A stretch of DNA of 64,000 bases from an uncultured delta proteobacterium (GCA_963733195.1 CAVTCR010000064.1:1-64000), one strand, 5' to 3'. Shown: positions 7,400-19,101, counted from the first letter of the stretch. Notes: a model not told the origin generated them from the sequence alone. Translations and numbers: made by a program.

Positions 7400-8918
7400 G
7401 CGCTAAAAGTTTGATGGTGATGGGTACAGCCTCCGATGTAGGAAAAAGCGTTGTCGTGACTGCGCTGTGCCGTGCCTTTGCTCGTGCCGGGGTACGCGTT
7501 GCTCCTTTCAAGTCGCAGAACATGTCGAACAACGCAGCCGTGTGCCCTGGAGGTGGTGAGATTGGTCGCGCCCAAGCCGTGCAAGCGGAAGCCTGTGGAT
7601 TGGAACCGACAGTAGACATGAATCCCGTGCTGCTCAAACCGGAAACCGAAACCGGATGCCAGGTGGTCATTCGTGGACAGGCACGCTTTCACATGCGTGC
7701 ACACGAGCATCAACGCTACCGGACTGAAGCGTGGCCGGAAATTGTCACTAGCTATCGTACGCTTGCTGAACGTTTTGACTTGATCGTCATCGAAGGTGCT
7801 GGCAGTGCCGCAGAGATCAACCTGAGAGAGCGCGACATGGTGAACTGGTCGATTGCTGAATTCGCGAACGCGCCAGTGCTGCTGGTTGCTGATATTGATA
7901 AAGGTGGTGTCTTTGCTTCGCTCGTCGGCACGATCGAGTTGCTCTCGCCTACTGAACGTCAAGTCGCGTTAAAGGATTCTTGATCAATAAATTTCGCGGT
8001 GATATCCGACTGTTGGAGAGTGGATTGCGTTTTCTCGAAGAACGCACTGGAATTCCGGTATTGGGCGTGCTCCCCTATCTCCGCGAGCTGCGTATTCCGC
8101 AAGAGGACGCCGCAGTGCTCGAGACCTCCCGTTCCCTTCATGCGAAGCGAGAGGTGATGATCGGTGTTGTCTGTGTACCGCGGATTGCGAATTACACTGA
8201 TTTTGCTCCGCTTGAAGAGGAGCCAGACGTGACCGTGCACTATCTCACCGATCCTGCTACGGCGCCACGGCTCGATATGCTCATCCTCCCGGGCAGCAAA
8301 AGTACAGTGGCCGATCTCCACTGGCTGCGGCACACAGGATGGGAAAATTATCTCGTACGTCATCTGCGTACTCAGGGGTGGGTCATCGGGGTGTGTGGCG
8401 GATACCAAATGCTGGGACAACACATTTTAGATCCGCAGGGAGTGGAGAGCGATATCACGGAGACCGTAGGATTGGGGCTCCTTGATATCACAACGTGTTT
8501 TGACACGAAGAAAATAACCGCCCAAGTGCAGGGACATAAGCTGTCCACCAAGCTGCCGATTTCTGGCTACGAGATTCACACTGGGCGAGTGACAAGGCAG
8601 CAGTCCGCGCGACCTCTCTTCCGTCTCTCCCAGCGCAACACTGATACCGTCGATGAACTCGAAGGTGCTCAATCGATCGACGGGCATATTTTAGGCACGG
8701 CGATTCACGGCATCTTTGATAGCAACCAGTTTCGGCGCGACGTAATCGACCGCATCCGTACCGCCAAAGGGCTTGCTTCGCTGGCTACCACAGCGAGTGT
8801 CGATACTACTGTACGACGGGTTCAGGAATACGACCGATTTGCCGACGTACTGGAGGCCAACACGGATATCGTCCGCATCGCCGCACTTGTAGGTTGCGAA
8901 CAGGTCTATACTCGATGA
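7396..8918 (+). CDS. cobQ: Cobyric acid synthase (frameshift near 7970)
   Basis: GTASDVGKS, PFKSQNMSNN, EGAGSAAEINL, INKFRGD, GATase GVCGGYQMLG, GYEIH. Split across ORFs 7396-7983 and 7980-8918. Confidence 0.93.
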
Positions 8919-8956
8919 TATTCGCCAGCACGTTCGAGGGAGGAAGCGAGAAGAAG

Positions 8957-9826
8957 ATGAAGCTCAATCGGCGTCAGTTTCTCAAGACAGGGGCGTCAGG
9001 CGTCGCTGCTGCTGTCCTGACTTCCTCGTCGTCACGAGCAATCATGCCAACACATGTACTGCGCATAGCCTTGGTACACCTTGCCCCTATTCCGGGTGAC
9101 CTCGCCTCTAATCGACGACTCGTCGAGACCGCCGTCACTACGGCCGCAAAATTAGGCGCTGCGTGGATCATCACGCCTGAGCTCTGTATCTGCGGCTATG
9201 CTTTTACCGACCAGATCGGCACTGACTGGATCTTGTCACAGCCAGACCCGTGGATGATAGACTTTTGCCGTTTAGTCGCCCAACTGCAAGTGACGGTGTT
9301 TCTGTCCCATCCCGAGCGGGATCGTCAGACTACAAAGCTCCACAACTCGGTGTTCGTGATTGGAGCGGATGGCACAATCCTCGGCAGGCATCGAAAAATC
9401 AATACACTACGGGTAGGTGCAGAGTCATGGTCAAGTCCAGGAGGACAGGCTGCTCCCATCCTTATTCCGCCAGTGGGCCATGTGGGAGTGTTAATCTGTG
9501 CGGATGCGTATTCGCCGGGGATTGCCAAGAGCTTACAAACCCAAGGCGCACATCTGCTAGTTTCTTCCGCTGCCTGGGCACCAGGCCTTCATGGGCCGAA
9601 TGGTGAATGGGAACGCTGTACCCGCGACACTGGACTTCCCCTTTTGGTCTGTAATCGAACTGGGCCCGATCGGACCTTGAACTTTACTGAGGCCGAGAGC
9701 GTGATCGTTAAAGGCGGGCAACGGCTTCTGTCGTTTCGCGCGGAACGTTCGGCCATTTTCACGATCGAGTGGAATCTGAAGACGCAGACCTTAGCGGTAC
9801 CAGAGTACCAGACAACGTACCTCTGA
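8957..9826 (+). CDS. Carbon-nitrogen hydrolase (nitrilase superfamily) with Tat signal
   Basis: NRRQFLK twin-arginine motif. Catalytic E (TPEL), K (HRK) and C (LICAD). Confidence 0.85.
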   Translation: MKLNRRQFLKTGASGVAAAVLTSSSSRAIMPTHVLRIALVHLAPIPGDLASNRRLVETAVTTAAKLGAAWIITPELCICGYAFTDQIGTDWILSQPDPWMIDFCRLVAQLQVTVFLSHPERDRQTTKLHNSVFVIGADGTILGRHRKINTLRVGAESWSSPGGQAAPILIPPVGHVGVLICADAYSPGIAKSLQTQGAHLLVSSAAWAPGLHGPNGEWERCTRDTGLPLLVCNRTGPDRTLNFTEAESVIVKGGQRLLSFRAERSAIFTIEWNLKTQTLAVPEYQTTYL

Positions 9827-9867: not shown

Positions 9868-10365
9868 CTAATCCTCAACTCGTTGCATTGCAACGACTGA
9901 ATAGGGCTGGAAAGAGCCATCTCCCCAGTCAACCTCAACACGCTCTTCAAATCCCTCTACCGTCGGAGTGAGGCGCTTCCGTGCGCGTTTCACTTTGCTG
10001 CCATACTCTGTTGGAGGCCGATCGGCAAATGAGAGGGCGTCGTCATCAAGCTCTAACTGATAGTTCAGAATTGTCCCACCATCTGTGTATGCCTGTGCCG
10101 TAAAGTATTCTGAGGTAGACCCTGTGCCGATCATCACCAACGCTTCATGAATATCTCTTCGGCCATCGGCAAGCGGGTAGGTGACGGTCATACGCAGACC
10201 GATGAACCGCCCTCCAGCTTCCCACACTCCGTTCATCTCTTTGTAGAAAACATTGGTGCCTTCCGCATATCGCCCTTCGCCACGGAAGCTGCCCAAGAGA
10301 AAGCGAAATCTCTGAAGCGGTAAACGATTTTCCTCGGGGTCGTGGACAAGGTCAGTTGCGGCCAT
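9868..10365 (-). CDS. Hypothetical beta-barrel-like protein
   Basis: 165-aa ORF with FLLGSFRGEG N-terminal motif, directly downstream of the acylase. Confidence 0.55.
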   Translation of the reverse strand: MAATDLVHDPEENRLPLQRFRFLLGSFRGEGRYAEGTNVFYKEMNGVWEAGGRFIGLRMTVTYPLADGRRDIHEALVMIGTGSTSEYFTAQAYTDGGTILNYQLELDDDALSFADRPPTEYGSKVKRARKRLTPTVEGFEERVEVDWGDGSFQPYSVVAMQRVED

Positions 10366-10374
10366 AGCATCCCT

Positions 10375-12837
10375 TTAGGGTTGTAAGACGATTTTCTTTT
10401 CAGTGACAGTGACAATTTTCTCGCGTGAGTAAAAAACAGGGAAATATTTTCCTGCTGCCCACATGTTTGCAAGGTCTCGATAATGCGGGTCCGCCGGATT
10501 CCCTCCTTGTCCCGGTGTATTAGTGCCGAGTGAGCGGTCCCAATCTGCTACGTCAGCAATGATGCGAAACGAAGCTCCGATCCCTTGCTCAGCATTATTG
10601 TCGGTGTTGTTGACCGTAAATCCATCTCCACCCCGAGCGAGAGGGCCGACATTAAGCTGCACACGATATTGAGAATTCACCGCCTCTCCAAGTATGTGAC
10701 GGATAGTGATATGGTGGTACCCGGCTTTCCCATAACTCCATTTGCTCATGTCGGGACCAAATCGTTCGGTCAGACTCTGGACCGCCTGCTCAAGGCTCTG
10801 GAGAAGAAAATCATCTCGCCCTTCGAGTGGTTGTTGGCCGTAGAGAGTGTCCGGCGTAGTCAGACTGTTGAGGAGTCGCTGCGGTGCCATTTTCGTAAAG
10901 TGTTGACGGGCCGAACCTGGGACCCGCCGCTCGCGATAGTTTTCCCACAGTCGTTGTTGCCAGGCGGCATAGATTCCTGCTGCAACAGAATCTTTCGCCA
11001 AGACATAGTTCCATGACTGTAACTTTTCGAGAGCAGCCTGGGTTGAGGGGCTCTCGGAGCGAAGCTCATGCAGAAGCGGAACGAGTGTTCGTGCGGGAAT
11101 GGATAGTTCATCCTGCTGCCAACGCATGACGTCAACCGCGGTGGTGCCCATGCGGGCATTCAACAGCTCACGAATACGAGCGAGGCGATACGGTGGCTCC
11201 CACAAGAAGCTCACGTGATGCGGATATCCTGGAGGGAGATTTTCCGCGTTTGCCGTGGCGAAAAATCCTTCGGAAGGATTGTATACGACGGGTAGTTCTT
11301 TGCTGGGGAGCATGCCCGCCCATTCAAATCGCCCATCGCCTGGAACGGGAAGCATCCCATTCCAATTGGGCCGGCGAGGCACAATGCCAGTGGCTTGCCA
11401 ACCGATATTGCCCTTTACATCAGCCCAGACCATGTTTTCGGATGGTGCATTGGAGTAGACACAGGCTGCTCGGAACTCCTCCCAGTTTTTCGCTTGGTCC
11501 ATGCGTAAGCTTGCGAGATATGGGGTGGCACCGATCTCAAGCCACGCGGCACGTAAGGCATACGCCTTGTGATAGGTTGCGTCCTCGGCGAGCACCGGGC
11601 CGTGACGAGTATACTTGAGTTCTACTGTTACCGGGTCTTGCCCTTTCACTGAGATAGTTTCCCGATGCACTTTCATATTTTCCCAGGTACCCTTGTAACG
11701 ATACTGATTGGGATCGAGAGGATTCGTATCGTATACGTACAGATCTTCGGAATCGGTCGGAAAGATGGTAAGACCCCATGCGCCATACTGGTTGTGACCA
11801 ATCGAAACTCCCGGTAAGTGCGGTTCGCCACCGCCAATGACATTCCACCCTGGTGCGACGAGATGGACCCAATAGCGGAGCGATGGCGCGGTAATCGCAC
11901 GGTGAGGATCGTTAGCCATCAGGGGACGTCTTGAGAGTGTCCGGTTGCCGTTGATTACCCAGTTGTTACTTCCCTCTGCAGACTGTTGTGGGGGAGCGTC
12001 AATAGCGGAAACGGGTGCATTGAGCTTGGCTATCGTGGCAGTGTCTGTACGCGCCTCAGCAACCACATCTTCAGGACTGAACTTCACACTCGTCCGTGCT
12101 GCGGTGTAGTACTTGAGGACAGTGTTCGGAATAGTATCGAGGTCTAAACCTTGAGCAACCGACAAATCAGGGTCTTTGGGATAAAAATCGCGCATCGCCA
12201 AAGTCGTTGTTGCACCTACGGACCGTACCTGTTGTGCCGTAAGCAATTCCTCTTCGAGATTCATAAACAAACCGCCGATACGAGAAATGACAATTTCCGG
12301 GGTCCATAGTTGCGGCGTGATCTCTAGGAGTCGAAACTCTAACGGCAGCAGCTCTGGGTGCTGTTCAGTTTCTTTGATGTAGGCGTTGATACCATCAACA
12401 AACGCGTTGATGATCTGTGGTCCTTCAGGATGGTAATGGGTCATTTCTTTGGTAAGATCGCCGCGAAACCGTAAAAGGCGTGCGCCGATATCACGGTCCA
12501 GAGCCCTTGAGCCTTGGATTTCGGCCATTGTTCCAGTTACCCGCCGCCGCCAAATTTCCAATTGGAAGAGCCGGTCACGGGCCGCGTTATAACCTTGGGC
12601 AAAGAAGAGGTCGTGTTGATTCTTGGCGTAAATATGGGGTATTCCCCAGCGATCTACCAAGATATCGACCGTATCAGTGAGTCCTGGAACTCTGACAATG
12701 GAAGAGGGGTCGTCTGCAAAGAGTGTCGAACTGCTGAGTACACAACACAGAAATCCTACTGCTAGAAACAAGGATGTCCGATACCACACGCATCGATTGA
12801 CAGGCTGGTTTGCCTTAGTGGGGCACAGCAACTTCAT
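10375..12837 (-). CDS. Penicillin acylase family Ntn hydrolase, exported
   Basis: DRWGIPHIYA, GSNNW beta-subunit nucleophile, ANDPH, signal-peptide-like N-terminus. Confidence 0.92.
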   Translation of the reverse strand: MKLLCPTKANQPVNRCVWYRTSLFLAVGFLCCVLSSSTLFADDPSSIVRVPGLTDTVDILVDRWGIPHIYAKNQHDLFFAQGYNAARDRLFQLEIWRRRVTGTMAEIQGSRALDRDIGARLLRFRGDLTKEMTHYHPEGPQIINAFVDGINAYIKETEQHPELLPLEFRLLEITPQLWTPEIVISRIGGLFMNLEEELLTAQQVRSVGATTTLAMRDFYPKDPDLSVAQGLDLDTIPNTVLKYYTAARTSVKFSPEDVVAEARTDTATIAKLNAPVSAIDAPPQQSAEGSNNWVINGNRTLSRRPLMANDPHRAITAPSLRYWVHLVAPGWNVIGGGEPHLPGVSIGHNQYGAWGLTIFPTDSEDLYVYDTNPLDPNQYRYKGTWENMKVHRETISVKGQDPVTVELKYTRHGPVLAEDATYHKAYALRAAWLEIGATPYLASLRMDQAKNWEEFRAACVYSNAPSENMVWADVKGNIGWQATGIVPRRPNWNGMLPVPGDGRFEWAGMLPSKELPVVYNPSEGFFATANAENLPPGYPHHVSFLWEPPYRLARIRELLNARMGTTAVDVMRWQQDELSIPARTLVPLLHELRSESPSTQAALEKLQSWNYVLAKDSVAAGIYAAWQQRLWENYRERRVPGSARQHFTKMAPQRLLNSLTTPDTLYGQQPLEGRDDFLLQSLEQAVQSLTERFGPDMSKWSYGKAGYHHITIRHILGEAVNSQYRVQLNVGPLARGGDGFTVNNTDNNAEQGIGASFRIIADVADWDRSLGTNTPGQGGNPADPHYRDLANMWAAGKYFPVFYSREKIVTVTEKKIVLQP

Positions 12838-12897
12838 AATGAAAGTATTTCGGCTATAGCAGAATCATTTACTAAGGCAACCGACCAACCAAGCACG

Positions 12898-12926
12898 TTG
12901 ACTCCTCGATAGGTTTCCGTTAGCCT
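12898..12926 (+). promoter_or_regulatory. Putative sigma70 promoter of the sulfur operon
   Basis: TTGACT-N17-TAGCCT. Confidence 0.45.
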
Positions 12927-12988
12927 TCCCTACCTGAAAGAGCCTCTTTCCTATGGGGAAGGGGCTCTTCGTTATTCGGCAACGTGTT

Positions 12989-13759
12989 ATGGAAGTCTCG
13001 ATTGAAACAGCAAGTGATTCTCGAGTACGAAACGGCAAGGTACTTGTTGTTGGCGTTGGTGGGCTTGGGTGCCCGGCAGCGCTCGCGCTCGCACGTGCCG
13101 GAGTAAGAATAATTGGCTTGATTGATCCTGATGTAGTCGAGCTCTCCAACTTACAACGACAGATCCTTCACGCGACACCGGATATCGGTCGTCCGAAGGT
13201 CGACTCAGCACGTGAGAAATTACTGAGAGTCAACCCAACCGTCACTGTGGTGACATATCACCAGCGGCTTTCAGCGGAGAATCTCCCGACTCTCTTTCGT
13301 GACTATGACTTTATTATTGACGGGACGGATGGAGTTGCGACCAAGTTTCTCATTAATGACGGGGCGGTGCTGCTACGTAAACCCTTTTCCTATGCTGGTA
13401 TTGTCCAGTTTCAAGGGCAGACGCTAACCGTGTGGCCTGGGCGTTCGACTTGCCTCCGCTGTCTGTTCCCGGTGATTCCGTCTGCCGATGATGTCCCGAC
13501 ATGTCAGGAGAGTGGGATTATCGGCAGTCTGGCTGGAAGCGTTGGTATCCTTCAGGCCACCGAAGCGTTGAAGTATCTTCGTGGAGAAGGCAATTTACTA
13601 ACCGATCGCCTTCTGACGTATGACGCATTGGCTCTACGGTGGAGGGAGGTGCGTGTGCGTCGCAGTCGCCACTGTCCGCTATGTGGAGAATATCCAACCA
13701 TCACCGAGATCAGTCCTATGACCCAAGAGCAAACGAGTACCTGTACTCTTGGGAGATGA
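12989..13759 (+). CDS. moeB: MoeB/ThiF-family E1-like adenylyltransferase A (active-site motifs intact)
   Basis: GVGGLG, IDPD, SNLQRQ, GRPKV, DGTD, CLRC, PTCQESG, CPLC. No rhodanese domain. Alternative start at 12953. Confidence 0.88.
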   Translation: MEVSIETASDSRVRNGKVLVVGVGGLGCPAALALARAGVRIIGLIDPDVVELSNLQRQILHATPDIGRPKVDSAREKLLRVNPTVTVVTYHQRLSAENLPTLFRDYDFIIDGTDGVATKFLINDGAVLLRKPFSYAGIVQFQGQTLTVWPGRSTCLRCLFPVIPSADDVPTCQESGIIGSLAGSVGILQATEALKYLRGEGNLLTDRLLTYDALALRWREVRVRRSRHCPLCGEYPTITEISPMTQEQTSTCTLGR

Positions 13760-13796
13760 ACACATACCTGCACGAGAGCATGAGTAAGGAGTCTTT

Positions 13797-15071
13797 ATGA
13801 GTACAATTACTGGCCTCACTTGTCGTGAATGTGGGCAAGAATACCCTGTTGCTCCACTGCATGTGTGTGAAACGTGTTTCGGGCCATTAGAGGTGGTCTA
13901 CGATTATGCGAGTATTCGCAAGCAAATCTCACGCACAGTGATCGAATCACGTCCGGAGTCGCTTTGGCGTTACCAAGAACTCTTGCCAGTCAGTGGAGAA
14001 CCTCGCGTCGGTTTGCACAGCGGGTTTACCCCCTTGGTCAAAGCCGATCGCTTAGCCGCATATCTCGGTGTGAAAGAATTGTACATCAAGGATGACTCCG
14101 TTAATCATCCGACGTTTTCCTACAAAGATCGTGTCGTTTCTGTAGCGATTTCTAAAGCCATGGAGTTTGGCTTTGATACGGTCTCGTGTGCATCAACCGG
14201 TAATTTGGCCAACTCAGTGTCTGCGCATGCTGCTCGGGCTGGCTTGCGTTGTTTCATCTTTATTCCATCAGACTTAGAGCAAGGGAAAGTCATCGGTTCT
14301 ACTATTTACGGTCCACGTGCCGTTGGCATTCGTGGCAACTATGATGACGTGAATCGCCTCTGCAGTGAAATTGCCGACAAATACGGGTGGGCATTCGTCA
14401 ATATCAACATCCGCCCGTATTACACCGAAGGCGCGAAAACCTACGGCTTTGAGATTGCCGAACAACTGGGGTGGCGTCTCCCACAACATGTGATCGTTCC
14501 CACGGCGGGCGGAACCATTCTACCCAAGGTAGCCAAAGCGTTTGAGGAAATGAAGAAAGTTGGACTGATTGATGACCCGCATACGCCGAAGATCTACACT
14601 GCGCAGGCGGCAGGCTGTGCGCCGGTGATTCATGCACTCCACAAAGGCTCTGACCTCATTGTTCCGGTCAAACCAAACACCATCGCCAAGTCGATTGCGA
14701 TTGGCAATCCAGCGGACGGCTATTATGTGCTTAAGGCGGTACGCGACTCTGGTGGTTGGGGTGAGGCGGCTACTGATCAGGAAATTGTCGCCGCGATTCA
14801 GTTACTGGCACAGACCGAGGGGATTTTCACTGAACCTGCGGGTGGGACCACTGTCGCCGTCGCGAAAAAACTGATTGAACAAGGGCGTATACCGAGAAAC
14901 GAGTCGATTGTTATCTGTATTACCGGCAATGGCTACAAGACGATCGAAGCGGTACTAGGAAATGTCAAACAACCCTATGAGATCAATGCTCGGCTGCAAG
15001 ACTTTGACGATCTCTATCAGTCGTTGAGTCAGACAGCGCCAAATCGCGTTGCAGCCGAGGGGCTTCATTAG
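13797..15071 (+). CDS. thrC: Threonine synthase-like PLP enzyme
   Basis: N-terminal CRECG/CETC, HPTFSYKDR PLP lysine, CASTGN, TEPAGG, ITGNGYK. Confidence 0.88.
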   Translation: MSTITGLTCRECGQEYPVAPLHVCETCFGPLEVVYDYASIRKQISRTVIESRPESLWRYQELLPVSGEPRVGLHSGFTPLVKADRLAAYLGVKELYIKDDSVNHPTFSYKDRVVSVAISKAMEFGFDTVSCASTGNLANSVSAHAARAGLRCFIFIPSDLEQGKVIGSTIYGPRAVGIRGNYDDVNRLCSEIADKYGWAFVNINIRPYYTEGAKTYGFEIAEQLGWRLPQHVIVPTAGGTILPKVAKAFEEMKKVGLIDDPHTPKIYTAQAAGCAPVIHALHKGSDLIVPVKPNTIAKSIAIGNPADGYYVLKAVRDSGGWGEAATDQEIVAAIQLLAQTEGIFTEPAGGTTVAVAKKLIEQGRIPRNESIVICITGNGYKTIEAVLGNVKQPYEINARLQDFDDLYQSLSQTAPNRVAAEGLH

Positions 15072-15141
15072 GGAGAAGGGGTGTTGCCAGAGAATAGGAA
15101 AATCGCCACAGTACAAGTGATCTTTTTCAGGAGGTATAGGC

Positions 15142-15417
15142 ATGAGCGTGCATGTGCGGATCCCCACCCCGCTGCGCCGTTTCACTGGCGGTGCTGAGGA
15201 AGTCAGTGCAGCCGGGGCAACGGTGGCCGCGTTAGTTGAGGACCTAGAGCGCAACCATCCAGGACTCAAAGAGCGGATTTGTGATGAGGGCGGCAAAGTC
15301 CGTCGTTTTGTCAACATCTTTGTCAACGGCGACGATATTCGTTTCCTCAACAATCTCGAGACAGTGATCAAAGCGGGGGACGAAGTCTCTATCGTTCCTG
15401 CGATTGCTGGAGGATGA
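15142..15417 (+). CDS. Ubiquitin-like sulfur carrier (MoaD/CysO/SAMP-like)
   Basis: VRIPTPLR...RFVNIFVNGDDIRFL...PAIAGG with exposed C-terminal GG. Strong SD. Confidence 0.92.
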   Translation: MSVHVRIPTPLRRFTGGAEEVSAAGATVAALVEDLERNHPGLKERICDEGGKVRRFVNIFVNGDDIRFLNNLETVIKAGDEVSIVPAIAGG

Positions 15418-15420
15418 GAT

Positions 15421-16407
15421 ATGTCGTTGGTGCCGGTATGGGGCGAGGGATTACCACCGCCCGAGCCTCAACGGGTGCCATCGGTACTGCACCTGGTCGG
15501 CAATACTCCGCTCCTCGAACTGACCAAGGTGACTGCAGGTATTTCTTCGCGTGTACGAGTTTTCGCCAAGCTTGAGGGGTTCAATCCTGGCGGATCGGTG
15601 AAGGATCGGCCCGCGCTCAAGATGGTGGCTGAAGGCTTACGATCTGGCTTTTTAGCTCCGGGCAAAACGATTCTCGATTCAACTTCTGGAAATACGGGCA
15701 TTGCTTTAGCGATGGTTGGAGCTGTCCTTGAATATCCTGTGGAGCTAGTCATTCCTGCCAACGTTAGTGTGGAACGGAAGAAGATTATTGCGGCCTATGG
15801 GGCACGGATGATTTTTAGCAGTCCCCTTGAAGGGTCGGACGGGGCGATTCGCTTATGCCGCCAGATCTTGCACGAAAATCCAGAGCGCTATTTTAAGCCG
15901 GATCAGTATTTTAATGAGGCTAATCCACTGGCACATTACGAAACCACTGGGCCGGAGCTCTGGGCGCAAACGCAGGGACGGATCTCACATTTTGTCGCAG
16001 GCATTGGCACCGGCGGGACGATTATGGGTACTGGCCGTTACTTGAAGGAGAAGAATCCACGGGTGCAAGTTCTTGCGGTCGAGCCCAACGATGCATTCCA
16101 CGGCCTTGAAGGGCTGAAACATATGGCGAGTTCGATCGTTCCAGGTATTTACCATGAGAAGGAGCTTGACGGAAAAATTCCCGTGTCCACCGAGGATGCG
16201 TATGACTCCGTCTATCGCTTAGGGCGCGAGGAAGGAGTCCTGGTGGGACAATCTTCTGGCGCTGCTATCTGGGCTGCTCTCAAGGTAGCGCGTGAACTTG
16301 AGGAAGGAGTTGTGGTTACACTCTTTCCCGATTTCGGTGATAAATACCTCAGTACCAACCTGTGGGTGGGTTGGAAAGAATTCGAGAAGAAACAACGTCA
16401 GTTGTAA
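15421..16407 (+). CDS. cysM: Cysteine synthase (CysM-type)
   Basis: NPGGSVKDR, STSGNTG, GIGTGGT, GQSSG, PDFGDKYLST. Confidence 0.9.
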   Translation: MSLVPVWGEGLPPPEPQRVPSVLHLVGNTPLLELTKVTAGISSRVRVFAKLEGFNPGGSVKDRPALKMVAEGLRSGFLAPGKTILDSTSGNTGIALAMVGAVLEYPVELVIPANVSVERKKIIAAYGARMIFSSPLEGSDGAIRLCRQILHENPERYFKPDQYFNEANPLAHYETTGPELWAQTQGRISHFVAGIGTGGTIMGTGRYLKEKNPRVQVLAVEPNDAFHGLEGLKHMASSIVPGIYHEKELDGKIPVSTEDAYDSVYRLGREEGVLVGQSSGAAIWAALKVARELEEGVVVTLFPDFGDKYLSTNLWVGWKEFEKKQRQL

Positions 16408-16432
16408 AACTGACCATTGTGGGGGAGGTATC

Positions 16433-16669
16433 GTGAAAGAGAAGTTTTATTTGACCTACCCTCCCGCGCTCATCAAAGAGCCGCTGATCTATCTGTTGAT
16501 TAAGAAGTTTGACATTATCCCAAACATTCGCGGAGCGAATGTCTCGGATGAGATGGGACTCCTGGCTATGGAGATTGAAGGAGCACAGGACGACATTGAT
16601 CGAGCGATTGCCTGGCTGCGCGAGCAAGGGGTAACCGTTGAACCGATCGAGAAGAATATCATCGAGTGA
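16433..16669 (+). CDS. Stand-alone NIL domain protein
   Basis: GTG start after GGAGG. LTYPPALIKEPLIY...NIRGANV...GVTVEPIE pattern. Confidence 0.8.
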   Translation: MKEKFYLTYPPALIKEPLIYLLIKKFDIIPNIRGANVSDEMGLLAMEIEGAQDDIDRAIAWLREQGVTVEPIEKNIIE

Positions 16670-16678
16670 CGAAACTGC

Positions 16679-17371
16679 ATGCTTTCTGACCCACAAATCG
16701 AGCGCTACAGCCGGCAAATCATTCTTCCGCAAGTGGGAGGCAAAGGCCAAGAGCGACTCCTGCGTGCCAGTGTCCTGGTGAGCGGTGATGGGCCGTTGCA
16801 AGCCGAGGCCTTGCTGTATTTCGCCGCGGCTGGTGTTGGGCGAATCGGCATCTATAGAACTGAGTGTCTGCCGATATTGCCCGCACTTGCCCCCGAGCAT
16901 CAGGCTTCTGCTGTAACCGCGTTGCAGCGGCTTAATCCGGATTGTGTAATTGTTGTCCACGACAAACAAGATCAGCAGAATGTCGTGCGCCTTGTTCAGC
17001 AATACGACCTGGTTGTTGCTGAACCGAATGCGCAACTTCATATGGCTTGCTACGTAACGCAGCGACCATTCTTATGTGGGCAAGTGTCAGCGACCACTGC
17101 TTGGCTTGCGGTCTACCGTGGTTACGAGGAAGACTTACCTTGCTTTGCCTGTGAGACATTGCCAATTTCCGAAACGGTACCCTCGCTCGGTGGCGATGAG
17201 CCTGTTGGTCCGTTTATCGGAACGATACTCGCAACCGAAGCGATCAAATGTATGCTTGGACTGTACCCGACAGGCCCAACAAAGCTGCTTCAGTATAGTT
17301 TCCCTGATTTGTCGTTTCACGACCGTGCCCTCTCGAAGAATCCCAAGTGTTCCGTCTGCAGACGAAAATAA
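16679..17371 (+). CDS. MoeB/ThiF-like protein B, degenerate adenylation site
   Basis: Has RYSRQIILPQVGGKGQERL and two CxxC motifs (CFAC, CSVC). Lacks GxGxxG, SNLxRQ and the crossover-loop Cys. Confidence 0.8.
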   Translation: MLSDPQIERYSRQIILPQVGGKGQERLLRASVLVSGDGPLQAEALLYFAAAGVGRIGIYRTECLPILPALAPEHQASAVTALQRLNPDCVIVVHDKQDQQNVVRLVQQYDLVVAEPNAQLHMACYVTQRPFLCGQVSATTAWLAVYRGYEEDLPCFACETLPISETVPSLGGDEPVGPFIGTILATEAIKCMLGLYPTGPTKLLQYSFPDLSFHDRALSKNPKCSVCRRK

Positions 17372-17407: not shown

Positions 17408-19101
17408 ATGCAAAGAGGTTGTACCCTATGGTTTACTGGTTTGTCGGGTGCCGGGAAATCGACACTTGCGACTGCCTTAGCCCCGCGGCTCCAAGCCTTG
17501 GGAAGGCACGTCGAGATTCTTGATGGTGACGAAGTACGCACGAATCTGAGCAAGGGCCTGGGTTTTAGCAAAGAAGATCGCGACACGAATATTCGTCGTA
17601 TTGGCTACGTAGCGCAATTATTGACGCGGAATGGCGCCTTTGTAATTACGGCGGCAATCTCGCCGTACCGGGAGATCCGTGATGAAGTGCGTCAGAAAAT
17701 CGGCAGGGATTTCGTTGAAGTCTATGCGAAGTGTCCGTTGGATGCGCTCGTCGCACGAGATGTCAAAGGACTGTACAAAAAAGCCCTCGCTGGAGAGATC
17801 AAAGAGTTCACCGGTGTGTCTGACCCCTACGAGGCTCCGCTCAATCCAGAGATTGTGGTCGAAACCGATCGCGAAGCTGTGGAACAAAGTGTTGAGAAAA
17901 TCCTTTCTCGTCTCCAAGAGTTAGGATTTCTCCCGAACGCAGATCTCGGTCCCATTGCGCCACACGGCGGCCAACTCGTAAACCGTCTCGTGACGGGTAC
18001 GCAGCGTGACGTACTATTGGAGCGTGCGAAGTCTTTGCCGCGCATTCAACTCGATGACCGCGCGCAGAGCGACGTTGAAATGATCGCAGTCGGGGCATTT
18101 TCGCCACTGCACGGATTTCTTGGAGCGGCGGATCATAAGCATGTTGTTGAACACATCCGCTTGGCGAACGGATTGCCGTGGTCGATTCCGGTGACACTGC
18201 AAGTGGCAAAGGCACAGGCTGATGTGTTAAAAGAAGGAACAGAAGTTGCCCTGGTTGACGAACGAAACACTATCCTTGCTGTTTTAGCTCTTGCCGAACG
18301 CTATATTCCGAACCGTGAGGAGGAAGTGCGAAAAGTCTATGGAACAACCGAGATCGCTCATCCTGGCGTTGCTGCTGTACTCCAAGGTGGAGAAGTGTAT
18401 CTGGGTGGAGAAATTCAGGTTGTGAATCGCCCAGACACGGTTGCCTTTCCTTCCTACCATCGTGACCCAGCACAAACTCGTGCCCTCTTCCGCGACCGTG
18501 GCTGGCGCACGGTCGTGGGATTTCAAACCCGCAATCCGATCCATCGTGCCCATGAGTACATCACCAAGAGTGCGCTTGAATTGTCGATGGCCTCATGTTG
18601 CATCCATTAGTCGGAAAAACAAAGGGTGACGACATTCCGGCAGATGTGCGTATGCGTTGTTACGAAGTGTTGATGGAAAAATATTATCCACAGGATCGGG
18701 TGCTACTTTCCGTATACCCGGCAGCGATGCGTTATGGTGGCCCGCGCGAAGCGATCTTCCATGCAATTGCCAGGAAAAATTACGGCTGTACCCATTTCAT
18801 TGTCGGACGCGACCACGCCGGTGTCGGCAATTATTATGGTACCTATGATGCTCAGAAAATTTTCGCGCAGTTTACTCCTGGAGAGTTAGGAATCCAGCCG
18901 CTCAATTTTGAAAATGCCTTCTTTTCACGCGTCACCGGACAAATGGGAACGGCGAAAACTGCTCCGGGGAGCCCCGAAACCCAAGTAAACCTCTCAGGGA
19001 CAAAAGTTCGTGAGATGCTCAGCAAGGGCGAACTGCCGCCGCCGGAATTCTCTCGCCCTGAAGTGGCGGAAGTGTTGATTGCCTCGATGAAACAGAAGTA
19101 A
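17408..19101 (+). CDS. cysC/sat: Bifunctional APS kinase (N-term) / ATP sulfurylase (C-term); frameshift near 18585
   Basis: [22 protein letters not shown], then [34 protein letters not shown]. Confidence 0.92.

Follow-up and report, generated by a model that had tools for sequence, protein, structure and literature searches.

The closest described relatives of the system reported here are enzymes of the ThiF/MoeB family. According to a 2025 review, MoeB and ThiF form homodimers in which both sites work, and SAE1 is an inactive subunit (PMC12355090); the arginine finger of ThiF and MoeB is reported to come from the neighbouring subunit (PMC13139853). Inactive and active adenylation subunits are combined in the eukaryotic pairs NAE1 (APPBP1)-UBA3 and SAE1-SAE2, and Arg15 of APPBP1 is reported to reach the adenosine triphosphate (ATP) site of the active subunit (PMC6031683). 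In the yeast ThiF-family transfer RNA (tRNA) ct6A dehydratase, inactive Tcd1 gives the arginine finger Arg59 to active Tcd2 (PMC13139853). The inactive domain of bacterial BilD contributes a key Arg9, and its authors call all other known bacterial E1-like proteins homodimers (PMC10557695). Here we describe two ThiF/MoeB paralogues, A (12989-13759) and B (16679-17371), encoded on the + strand of a 64,000-nucleotide stretch of DNA, hereafter the window, from an uncultured soil delta proteobacterium (GCA_963733195.1 CAVTCR010000064.1:1-64000). The source genome is a Candidatus Binatia metagenome-assembled genome (MAG) of 6.9 Mb in 87 contigs, 93% complete. Judged from their sequences and a modelled complex, A and B probably form an active/inactive heterodimer that activates a GG-ended carrier for the synthesis of cysteine and homocysteine.

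The locus shares with E. coli MoeB-MoaD (1jw9, 1jwa, 1jwb) and ThiF-ThiS (1zud) the fold family, the ATP motifs as present in A, the zinc CxxC pairs and a beta-grasp carrier ending in GG. PMC12355090, however, describes symmetric MoeB and ThiF homodimers, each with two active sites, whereas the enzyme is here split over two genes and a single site per dimer is expected. An inactive and an active adenylation subunit are likewise paired in NAE1-UBA3 and SAE1-SAE2, but those enzymes have a catalytic-cysteine domain, a ubiquitin-fold domain, an E2 and conjugation, all missing here, where the carrier serves sulfur transfer; a search of the operon's open reading frames with Pfam found no E2-like gene. 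The description "eukaryote-like", given in an earlier reading made from the sequence alone (the sequence-only reading), thus fits the active/inactive asymmetry and does not extend to the catalytic-cysteine domain, the ubiquitin-fold domain or the E2. BilD of the antiviral BilABCD system is also bacterial and also combines inactive and active adenylation modules, the arginine coming from the inactive one (PMC10557695), but in BilD the modules are fused into a single polypeptide that includes a CYS domain, works with an E2 and serves defence, whereas A and B are two genes of an amino acid biosynthesis operon. Yeast Tcd1-Tcd2 is likewise a ThiF-family heterodimer in which the inactive paralogue carries the arginine finger (PMC13139853). 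It differs in being eukaryotic and in acting on tRNA t6A rather than on a protein carrier, and its active subunit is not reported there to have lost the whole helix. For the pathway, the nearest counterparts are the systems named CysO-CysM-MoeZ in M. tuberculosis and MetO-MetM-MoeZ-Mec in Streptomyces (PMC13759103, Table 2; PMC3227635), in which a ThiS-like carrier likewise stands beside CysM and a ThrC homologue together with an E1-like activator. MoeZ, however, is a single gene with a rhodanese domain, whereas the activator of this operon is split into A and B, has no rhodanese domain and is accompanied by no Mec/JAMM gene in the operon.

Protein A (256 residues) matches PF00899 (ThiF) with 242 bits against a gathering cut-off of 28.1, the match beginning at profile position 11 and at residue 18 of the protein as read from an ATG at 12953. 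Against E. coli MoeB (1jw9_B, E = 8.5e-47) the alignment starts only at MoeB residue 27, so that the helix carrying R14 has no counterpart in A. In E. coli MoeB numbering, which we use for all motif residues, A retains GVGGLG, IDPD (D62), SNLQRQ (N70 and R73), RPKV (K86), DGTD (D130), PTCQESG (C187) and the zinc motifs CLRC and CPLC. Its crossover loop (PTCQESG) is short, and ThiF is the only Pfam domain found in A. Protein B (230 residues) shows the complementary pattern. It matches PF00899 with 76 bits against the same cut-off of 28.1, in two stretches, and aligns with 1jw9_B (E = 1.3e-19) over MoeB residues 4-248. Residue n of B corresponds to MoeB residue n+2, and R12 of B is the equivalent of MoeB R14. 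B retains RYSRQ (residues 9-13), CFAC (155-158) and CSVC (224-227). In place of the GLGGLG P-loop it has GDGPLQ, SNLQRQ is deleted, and D62, K86, D130 and C187 have no equivalents. Both halves of this pattern had been proposed in the sequence-only reading, and the Pfam and 1jw9 alignments bear them out. Judged by its sequence, B would be unable to bind ATP by any known motif and should not be called an adenylyltransferase. Public records name B-type proteins variously as "hypothetical protein", "ThiF family adenylyltransferase", "molybdopterin-synthase adenylyltransferase" and "adenylyltransferase/sulfurtransferase". Neither protein reaches an NCBIfam equivalog cut-off among the MoeB, MoeZ, ThiF and SAMP-E1 models; the best score of A is 272.7 bits against 449 for NF006444.

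The absence of the helix from A depends on where the gene starts. The sequence-only reading had allowed that the upstream ATG at 12953 might add an IRQ to A, or that a frameshifted RY-S-RQ might lie ahead of it, and neither caveat survived. The leader contains a hairpin of 12 base pairs, in which 12940-12951 pair with 12956-12967 around a loop at 12952-12955, and the ATG at 12953 lies inside this loop. Related loci have the same hairpin sequence ahead of A, and a genome of the same genus (G002) has a stop codon in the equivalent "IRQ" frame ("AI*QRIMEA"). All 19 of the same-family or same-order orthologues of A that were fetched first start 10-27 residues ahead of the P-loop, and RYxRQ is absent from all of them. 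For the out-of-frame "LRYS" (12968-12979), no ATG, GTG or TTG lies upstream in its frame, which is closed by a stop; it also overlaps the conserved hairpin on the latter's 3' side, and a frameshifted N-terminus was rejected. Because of the hairpin loop, the stop in G002, the orthologue starts and the lack of a start codon for the out-of-frame "RYS", we place the start of A at 12989, and the ATG at 12953 is non-coding.

The division of motifs between A and B is conserved. A single-protein query found B-type genes in all 24 same-family genomes searched; in a second family sample of 35 genomes, a single protein detected them in 31 and a profile in the other four. Each time, an A-type gene is encoded on the same strand, 2-4 kb upstream of B, in keeping with the sequence-only reading, which had put both genes in one operon. 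Among the 80 loci kept from the species-level genome collection, B-type proteins at 40% identity or more are confined to Binatia records; metagenome protein collections contain them commonly. A search with A over 251 Binatia genomes brought up many further short A-like genes. We assembled 67 loci, comprising the window, the first 20 loci, six from other families and 40 of these further ones, one per genome, that were hand-picked, non-randomly, among matches of 50-62% identity, the unpublished G197 being left out. All open frames of the 67 loci were scored with profiles of A and B. In 43 loci, an A without RYxRQ is accompanied by B in the same operon, and in one more an A without RYxRQ stands on a contig that ends right after CysM, ahead of the position of B. 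In 21 loci, of families f4, f15 and f17, A has a complete LTPEQIERYSRQIM... N-terminus with RYSRQ and there is no B, two of these loci being cut after the carrier gene. In the remaining two (G030 and G126, family f7), A and B both have all ATP motifs and the helix. The helix is absent from A exactly where B exists: RYxRQ occurs in none of the 43 A proteins beside a degenerate B and in all 21 from B-less loci. Whole-genome profile searches of five single-gene genomes, 97-99% complete, found only the complete A-type protein and a canonical paralogue of about 400 residues. One orthologue match of A (G238:C60:24157-24891) contains two in-frame TGA codons, which may reflect a frameshift, an assembly error or decay.

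The residues retained on either side of this division are as consistent as the division itself. All 67 A-position proteins keep G41, G43, D62, N70, R73, K86, D130, C187 and the four zinc cysteines, and the N-terminal RYxRQ helix is absent in 44 of them and present in 23. Among the 43 degenerate B proteins, by contrast, G43 is found in two, D62 in three, R73 in two, K86 in one, and N70 and C187 in none, whereas the four zinc cysteines are kept in 43, 43, 42 and 35. In the 45 B-position proteins, which come from many families, R9, S11, R12 and Q13 of B do not vary. Twenty columns are at least 90% identical over these 45 proteins; twelve belong to the N-terminal part (L2, Q6, R9, Y10, S11, R12, Q13, L16, G20, G23, Q24 and L27), four to the YLAAAGVG helix (Y47, L48, G52 and G54), and the rest are the zinc ligands C155, C158 and C224 together with G181. 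Among 18 B proteins of the family, mean pairwise identity amounts to 0.89 over residues 1-28 and 0.41 elsewhere; the corresponding values for A are 0.25 (first 15 residues) and 0.72 (elsewhere). Selection on B thus appears to be concentrated in the N-terminal helix, where A is deficient. An orthologue of B in a genome of the same order (G025, loci L041 and L143) has 338 residues, with an insertion of about 100 residues after the N-terminal third.

A modelled complex is consistent with A and B being partners. A, B and ATP were modelled together in three runs with their own alignments, and the A:B score was 0.92 in each run, compared with 0.00 for the best of three controls. Of 157 solved complexes 116 attain this mark, and of 215 mismatched pairs 2 do; these counts hold only roughly for runs with own alignments and a ligand. 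The three runs agree in at least 93% of contacts, with a predicted local distance difference test (pLDDT) value of at least 86 for the partner. In the model, residues 5, 8-13, 15-16 and 18 of B contact residues 52-53 and 55-64 of A, which is the SNLQRQ stretch. Outside the N-terminus, invariant residues of B make up 9 of the 41 positions at the modelled interface and 12 of the 161 elsewhere (one-sided Fisher test, p = 0.011).

Two trees and the loci themselves bear on how the division came about. A quick tree of the A-position proteins, built with the N-terminal columns removed and rooted on five canonical paralogues, recovers the 67 proteins as one clade (Shimodaira-Hasegawa-like approximate likelihood ratio test, SH-aLRT, 100), within which the complete single-gene forms (21; support 99) separate from the forms neighbouring B (46; support 91). 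Parsimony on this tree gives two changes of the N-terminal state and two of the B state, one of the latter being the locus cut by the contig end. An earlier quick tree, consulted solely for how B-position rows separate from the others, places every B-position row on the same side of a branch supported at 98. The phylogeny indicates that the pair would have arisen inside Binatia, independently of the eukaryotic E1s. G030, G126 and a third genome, G094, fall inside the group of 46, in a poorly resolved part. In G094, A lacks the helix and B still carries GAGAVG (P-loop), VDGD (D62) and K86; the positions of SNLxRQ and DxxD in this B are occupied by TALRRQ and DTAP, D130 being lost. The loci suggest a route that would begin with a single complete gene, as in f4, f15 and f17, and pass through duplication inside the operon to a state with both copies intact, as in G030 and G126; A would later have lost its helix while B decayed stepwise, with G094 as an intermediate and the other B proteins having lost nearly the whole site.

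The operon context points to the substrate. The operon runs on the + strand from about 12.9 to 19.1 kb of the window with seven genes from A to CysC-Sat, and its gene order is kept in related loci. A is followed by a threonine-synthase homologue with an N-terminal CxxC...CxxC ribbon (13797-15071; PALP 233 bits; NF006050 324 bits against a cut-off of 303), and then by a carrier of the ThiS/MoaD/SAMP type (15142-15417) with 91 residues and the C-terminus AIAGG (PF02597 68.5 bits; NF041918 65.1 bits against 60), so that the GG-ended, ubiquitin-like carrier named in the sequence-only reading is confirmed. Next comes a CysM-type cysteine synthase (15421-16407; TIGR01136 cysKM 354.2 bits against 344.15; TIGR01138 cysM 381.5 bits, below its 394.2). 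A ThiS-fold carrier with a free C-terminal GG therefore stands beside CysM and a ThrC-like gene, the arrangement of the CysO/MetO pathway. By this context and by Table 2 of PMC13759103, the threonine-synthase homologue would be a MetM-like homocysteine synthase that depends on the carrier thiocarboxylate.

We therefore propose an asymmetric E1-like enzyme that would consist of A and B as its subunits and have one active site. A would bind Mg-ATP and the GG tail of the carrier and adenylate it, and B, as a non-catalytic paralogue, would dimerise with A through the usual ThiF/MoeB interface. The N-terminal helix of B (residues ~5-18, including R12) would lie over the SNLQRQ/ATP site of A and replace, in trans, the helix that A has lost. 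The acyl-adenylate of the carrier would then be converted to the thiocarboxylate; neither A nor B has a rhodanese domain detectable with Pfam that would point to the sulfur donor. The thiocarboxylate would feed the adjacent pyridoxal phosphate enzymes, presumably CysM for cysteine and the ThrC-like enzyme for homocysteine. The same genome has a third ThiF-family gene elsewhere (contig C26:87886-88590, locus L001), a complete frame of 408 residues with an N-terminal rhodanese domain ahead of the ThiF domain, RYARH and all ATP motifs. There is no JAMM/Mec gene within the operon, and in the whole genome a single gene is clearly of the Prok-JAB (JAMM) type (67.5 bits); it lies on contig C56 (78546-78878, locus L144) and is a candidate for a Mec-like hydrolase of the carrier-amino acid adduct.

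Several observations weigh against such a heterodimer. According to PMC13139853, the fingers MoeB R14 and ThiF R11 are not catalytically essential and E. coli TcdA has none, and PMC6031683 reports that APPBP1 R15A merely slows activation, so that A might by analogy work without B. The model resembles the solved MoeB homodimer (1jw9), and its high score may reflect memory or likeness rather than binding. With so few parsimony changes on the tree, the 67 loci are not independent and the co-variation may rest on few events; moreover, 40 of these loci were not chosen at random. The complete rhodanese-MoeB paralogue on C26 could activate the carrier instead, or could donate sulfur. In the RNA run X15, pieces cover parts of the operon and none is listed on B, which is nevertheless no evidence of silence. 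Among the sequencing runs, in all of which the sequences are contigs, the highest share of sampled words in any run is 0.28.

If the finger is dispensable, A could be a self-sufficient homodimer that has no finger helix, and B a separate non-catalytic protein that docks the carrier, the sulfur donor or the NIL protein encoded next to it, or that has a regulatory role. The reports on MoeB, ThiF and TcdA just cited speak for this reading, as do the retained zinc site of B, its well-folded E1-like body in the model (pLDDT 86-87) and the existence of one fusion of NIL and B (P0118). It is nonetheless unlikely. It leaves unexplained why loss of the helix is confined to the B-bearing lineages, 43 loci against 21, and why the most constrained part of B is the helix of an ATP site that B itself does not have; docking of NIL in particular is at odds with the presence of NIL in single-gene operons. 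The dispensability of the finger can also be accommodated by the A:B heterodimer, since the contribution of B may then be as much structural, in the folding or stability of A, as catalytic. A heterodimer might equally form with B as a brake or a regulated subunit, halving the number of active sites or sensing a metabolite, without any completion of A being needed. The architecture would be identical to that of the heterodimer we favour, inactivation of one site in yeast Tcd is speculated in PMC13139853 to fine-tune activity, and the pathway is regulated, since 4 of the 9 relatives scanned have a riboswitch for S-adenosylmethionine (SAM). However, B retains no ligand-binding motif, and an A:A dimer would be without the helix at both sites, which makes this version less likely still. 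Finally, the whole pattern might be an artefact, with the start of A miscalled or frameshifted in an error-prone MAG, or B a decaying pseudogene. A single frameshift is indeed present in the assembly, within the Sat gene, and an out-of-frame "RYS" does lie upstream of A. But the helix is missing from 44 A-position genes, which come from many genomes and in part from closed chromosomes, and all 45 B-position genes are open frames that keep their invariant residues across deep divergence, so that an artefact is very improbable. We accordingly retain as the preferred reading the heterodimer in which B supplies what A has lost. The sequence-only reading had proposed such a heterodimer and named findings that would refute it; as far as sequences can decide, they spoke for it, since A orthologues beside B have no RYxRQ and B is both conserved and co-located.

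The leader of the operon has features of its own. A conserved block, TTGACTCC...CCGTTAGCCT (12898-12929), precedes the terminator-like hairpin already described (12940-12967, + strand; 12944-12964 in the terminator scan). In 4 of 9 related loci scanned (L028, L031, L039 and L041), a SAM-I riboswitch of 70-85 bits precedes the same hairpin. An Rfam scan of 12600-13100 in the window at E ≤ 1 gave no match, and no aptamer known to Rfam is found in the window or its nearest relatives; a scan for sigma-70 promoters over 12800-13050 returned 0 sites. The leader in the window has either changed its regulation or carries an undescribed element at 12898-12967.

The remaining genes of the operon and its surroundings were annotated in the same way. 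Between CysM and B lies a small NIL-domain protein of 78 residues (16433-16669, + strand; PF09383 54.5 bits), with a GTG start after GGGGGAGG; its stop codon is 9 nucleotides upstream of the ATG of B. The metagenomic protein P0118 is a fusion of NIL and B and reads W at the position of the NIL stop. The NIL gene is also present in B-less, single-gene operons and is thus not tied to B. Downstream of B, a fusion of adenosine 5'-phosphosulfate (APS) kinase and ATP sulfurylase (CysC-Sat, 17408-19101, + strand; Pfam and NCBIfam matches) is broken by one missing base near 18582. Within the break (18578-18610), four relatives read ALEIVDGL in one frame, and in one low-depth contig of a related strain (run X3) a G behind 18582 restores the frame; either the assembly is in error here or the gene is a pseudogene specific to the strain. 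Upstream of the operon are genes for a carbon-nitrogen hydrolase with a twin-arginine translocation (TAT) signal (8894-9826, + strand), an unassigned protein of 165 residues (9868-10365, - strand) and a penicillin amidase family protein of 820 residues (10375-12837, - strand), all of which appear unrelated to it.

In the literature searched, which left most subscription journals outside, we found no description of a bacterial two-gene active/inactive pair of the MoeB type. A pair of this E1-like kind, working in ordinary sulfur metabolism, would add a third way for asymmetry to arise. Reconstructions of Binatia pathways that count B as a second MoeB would be wrong, because B lacks every known motif for binding ATP. 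We consider it an evenly balanced proposition that the Binatia genomes preserve all the stages by which bacteria independently repeated the path to the asymmetric eukaryotic E1s, namely the complete gene, the intact duplicates, the intermediate of G094 and the full complementary loss that leads to an obligate heterodimer. With natural intermediates of this kind, experiments can address how and why E1s became asymmetric. If the proposition is true, duplication followed by complementary decay can make an E1 asymmetric with no connection to conjugation, and the series could be rebuilt step by step.

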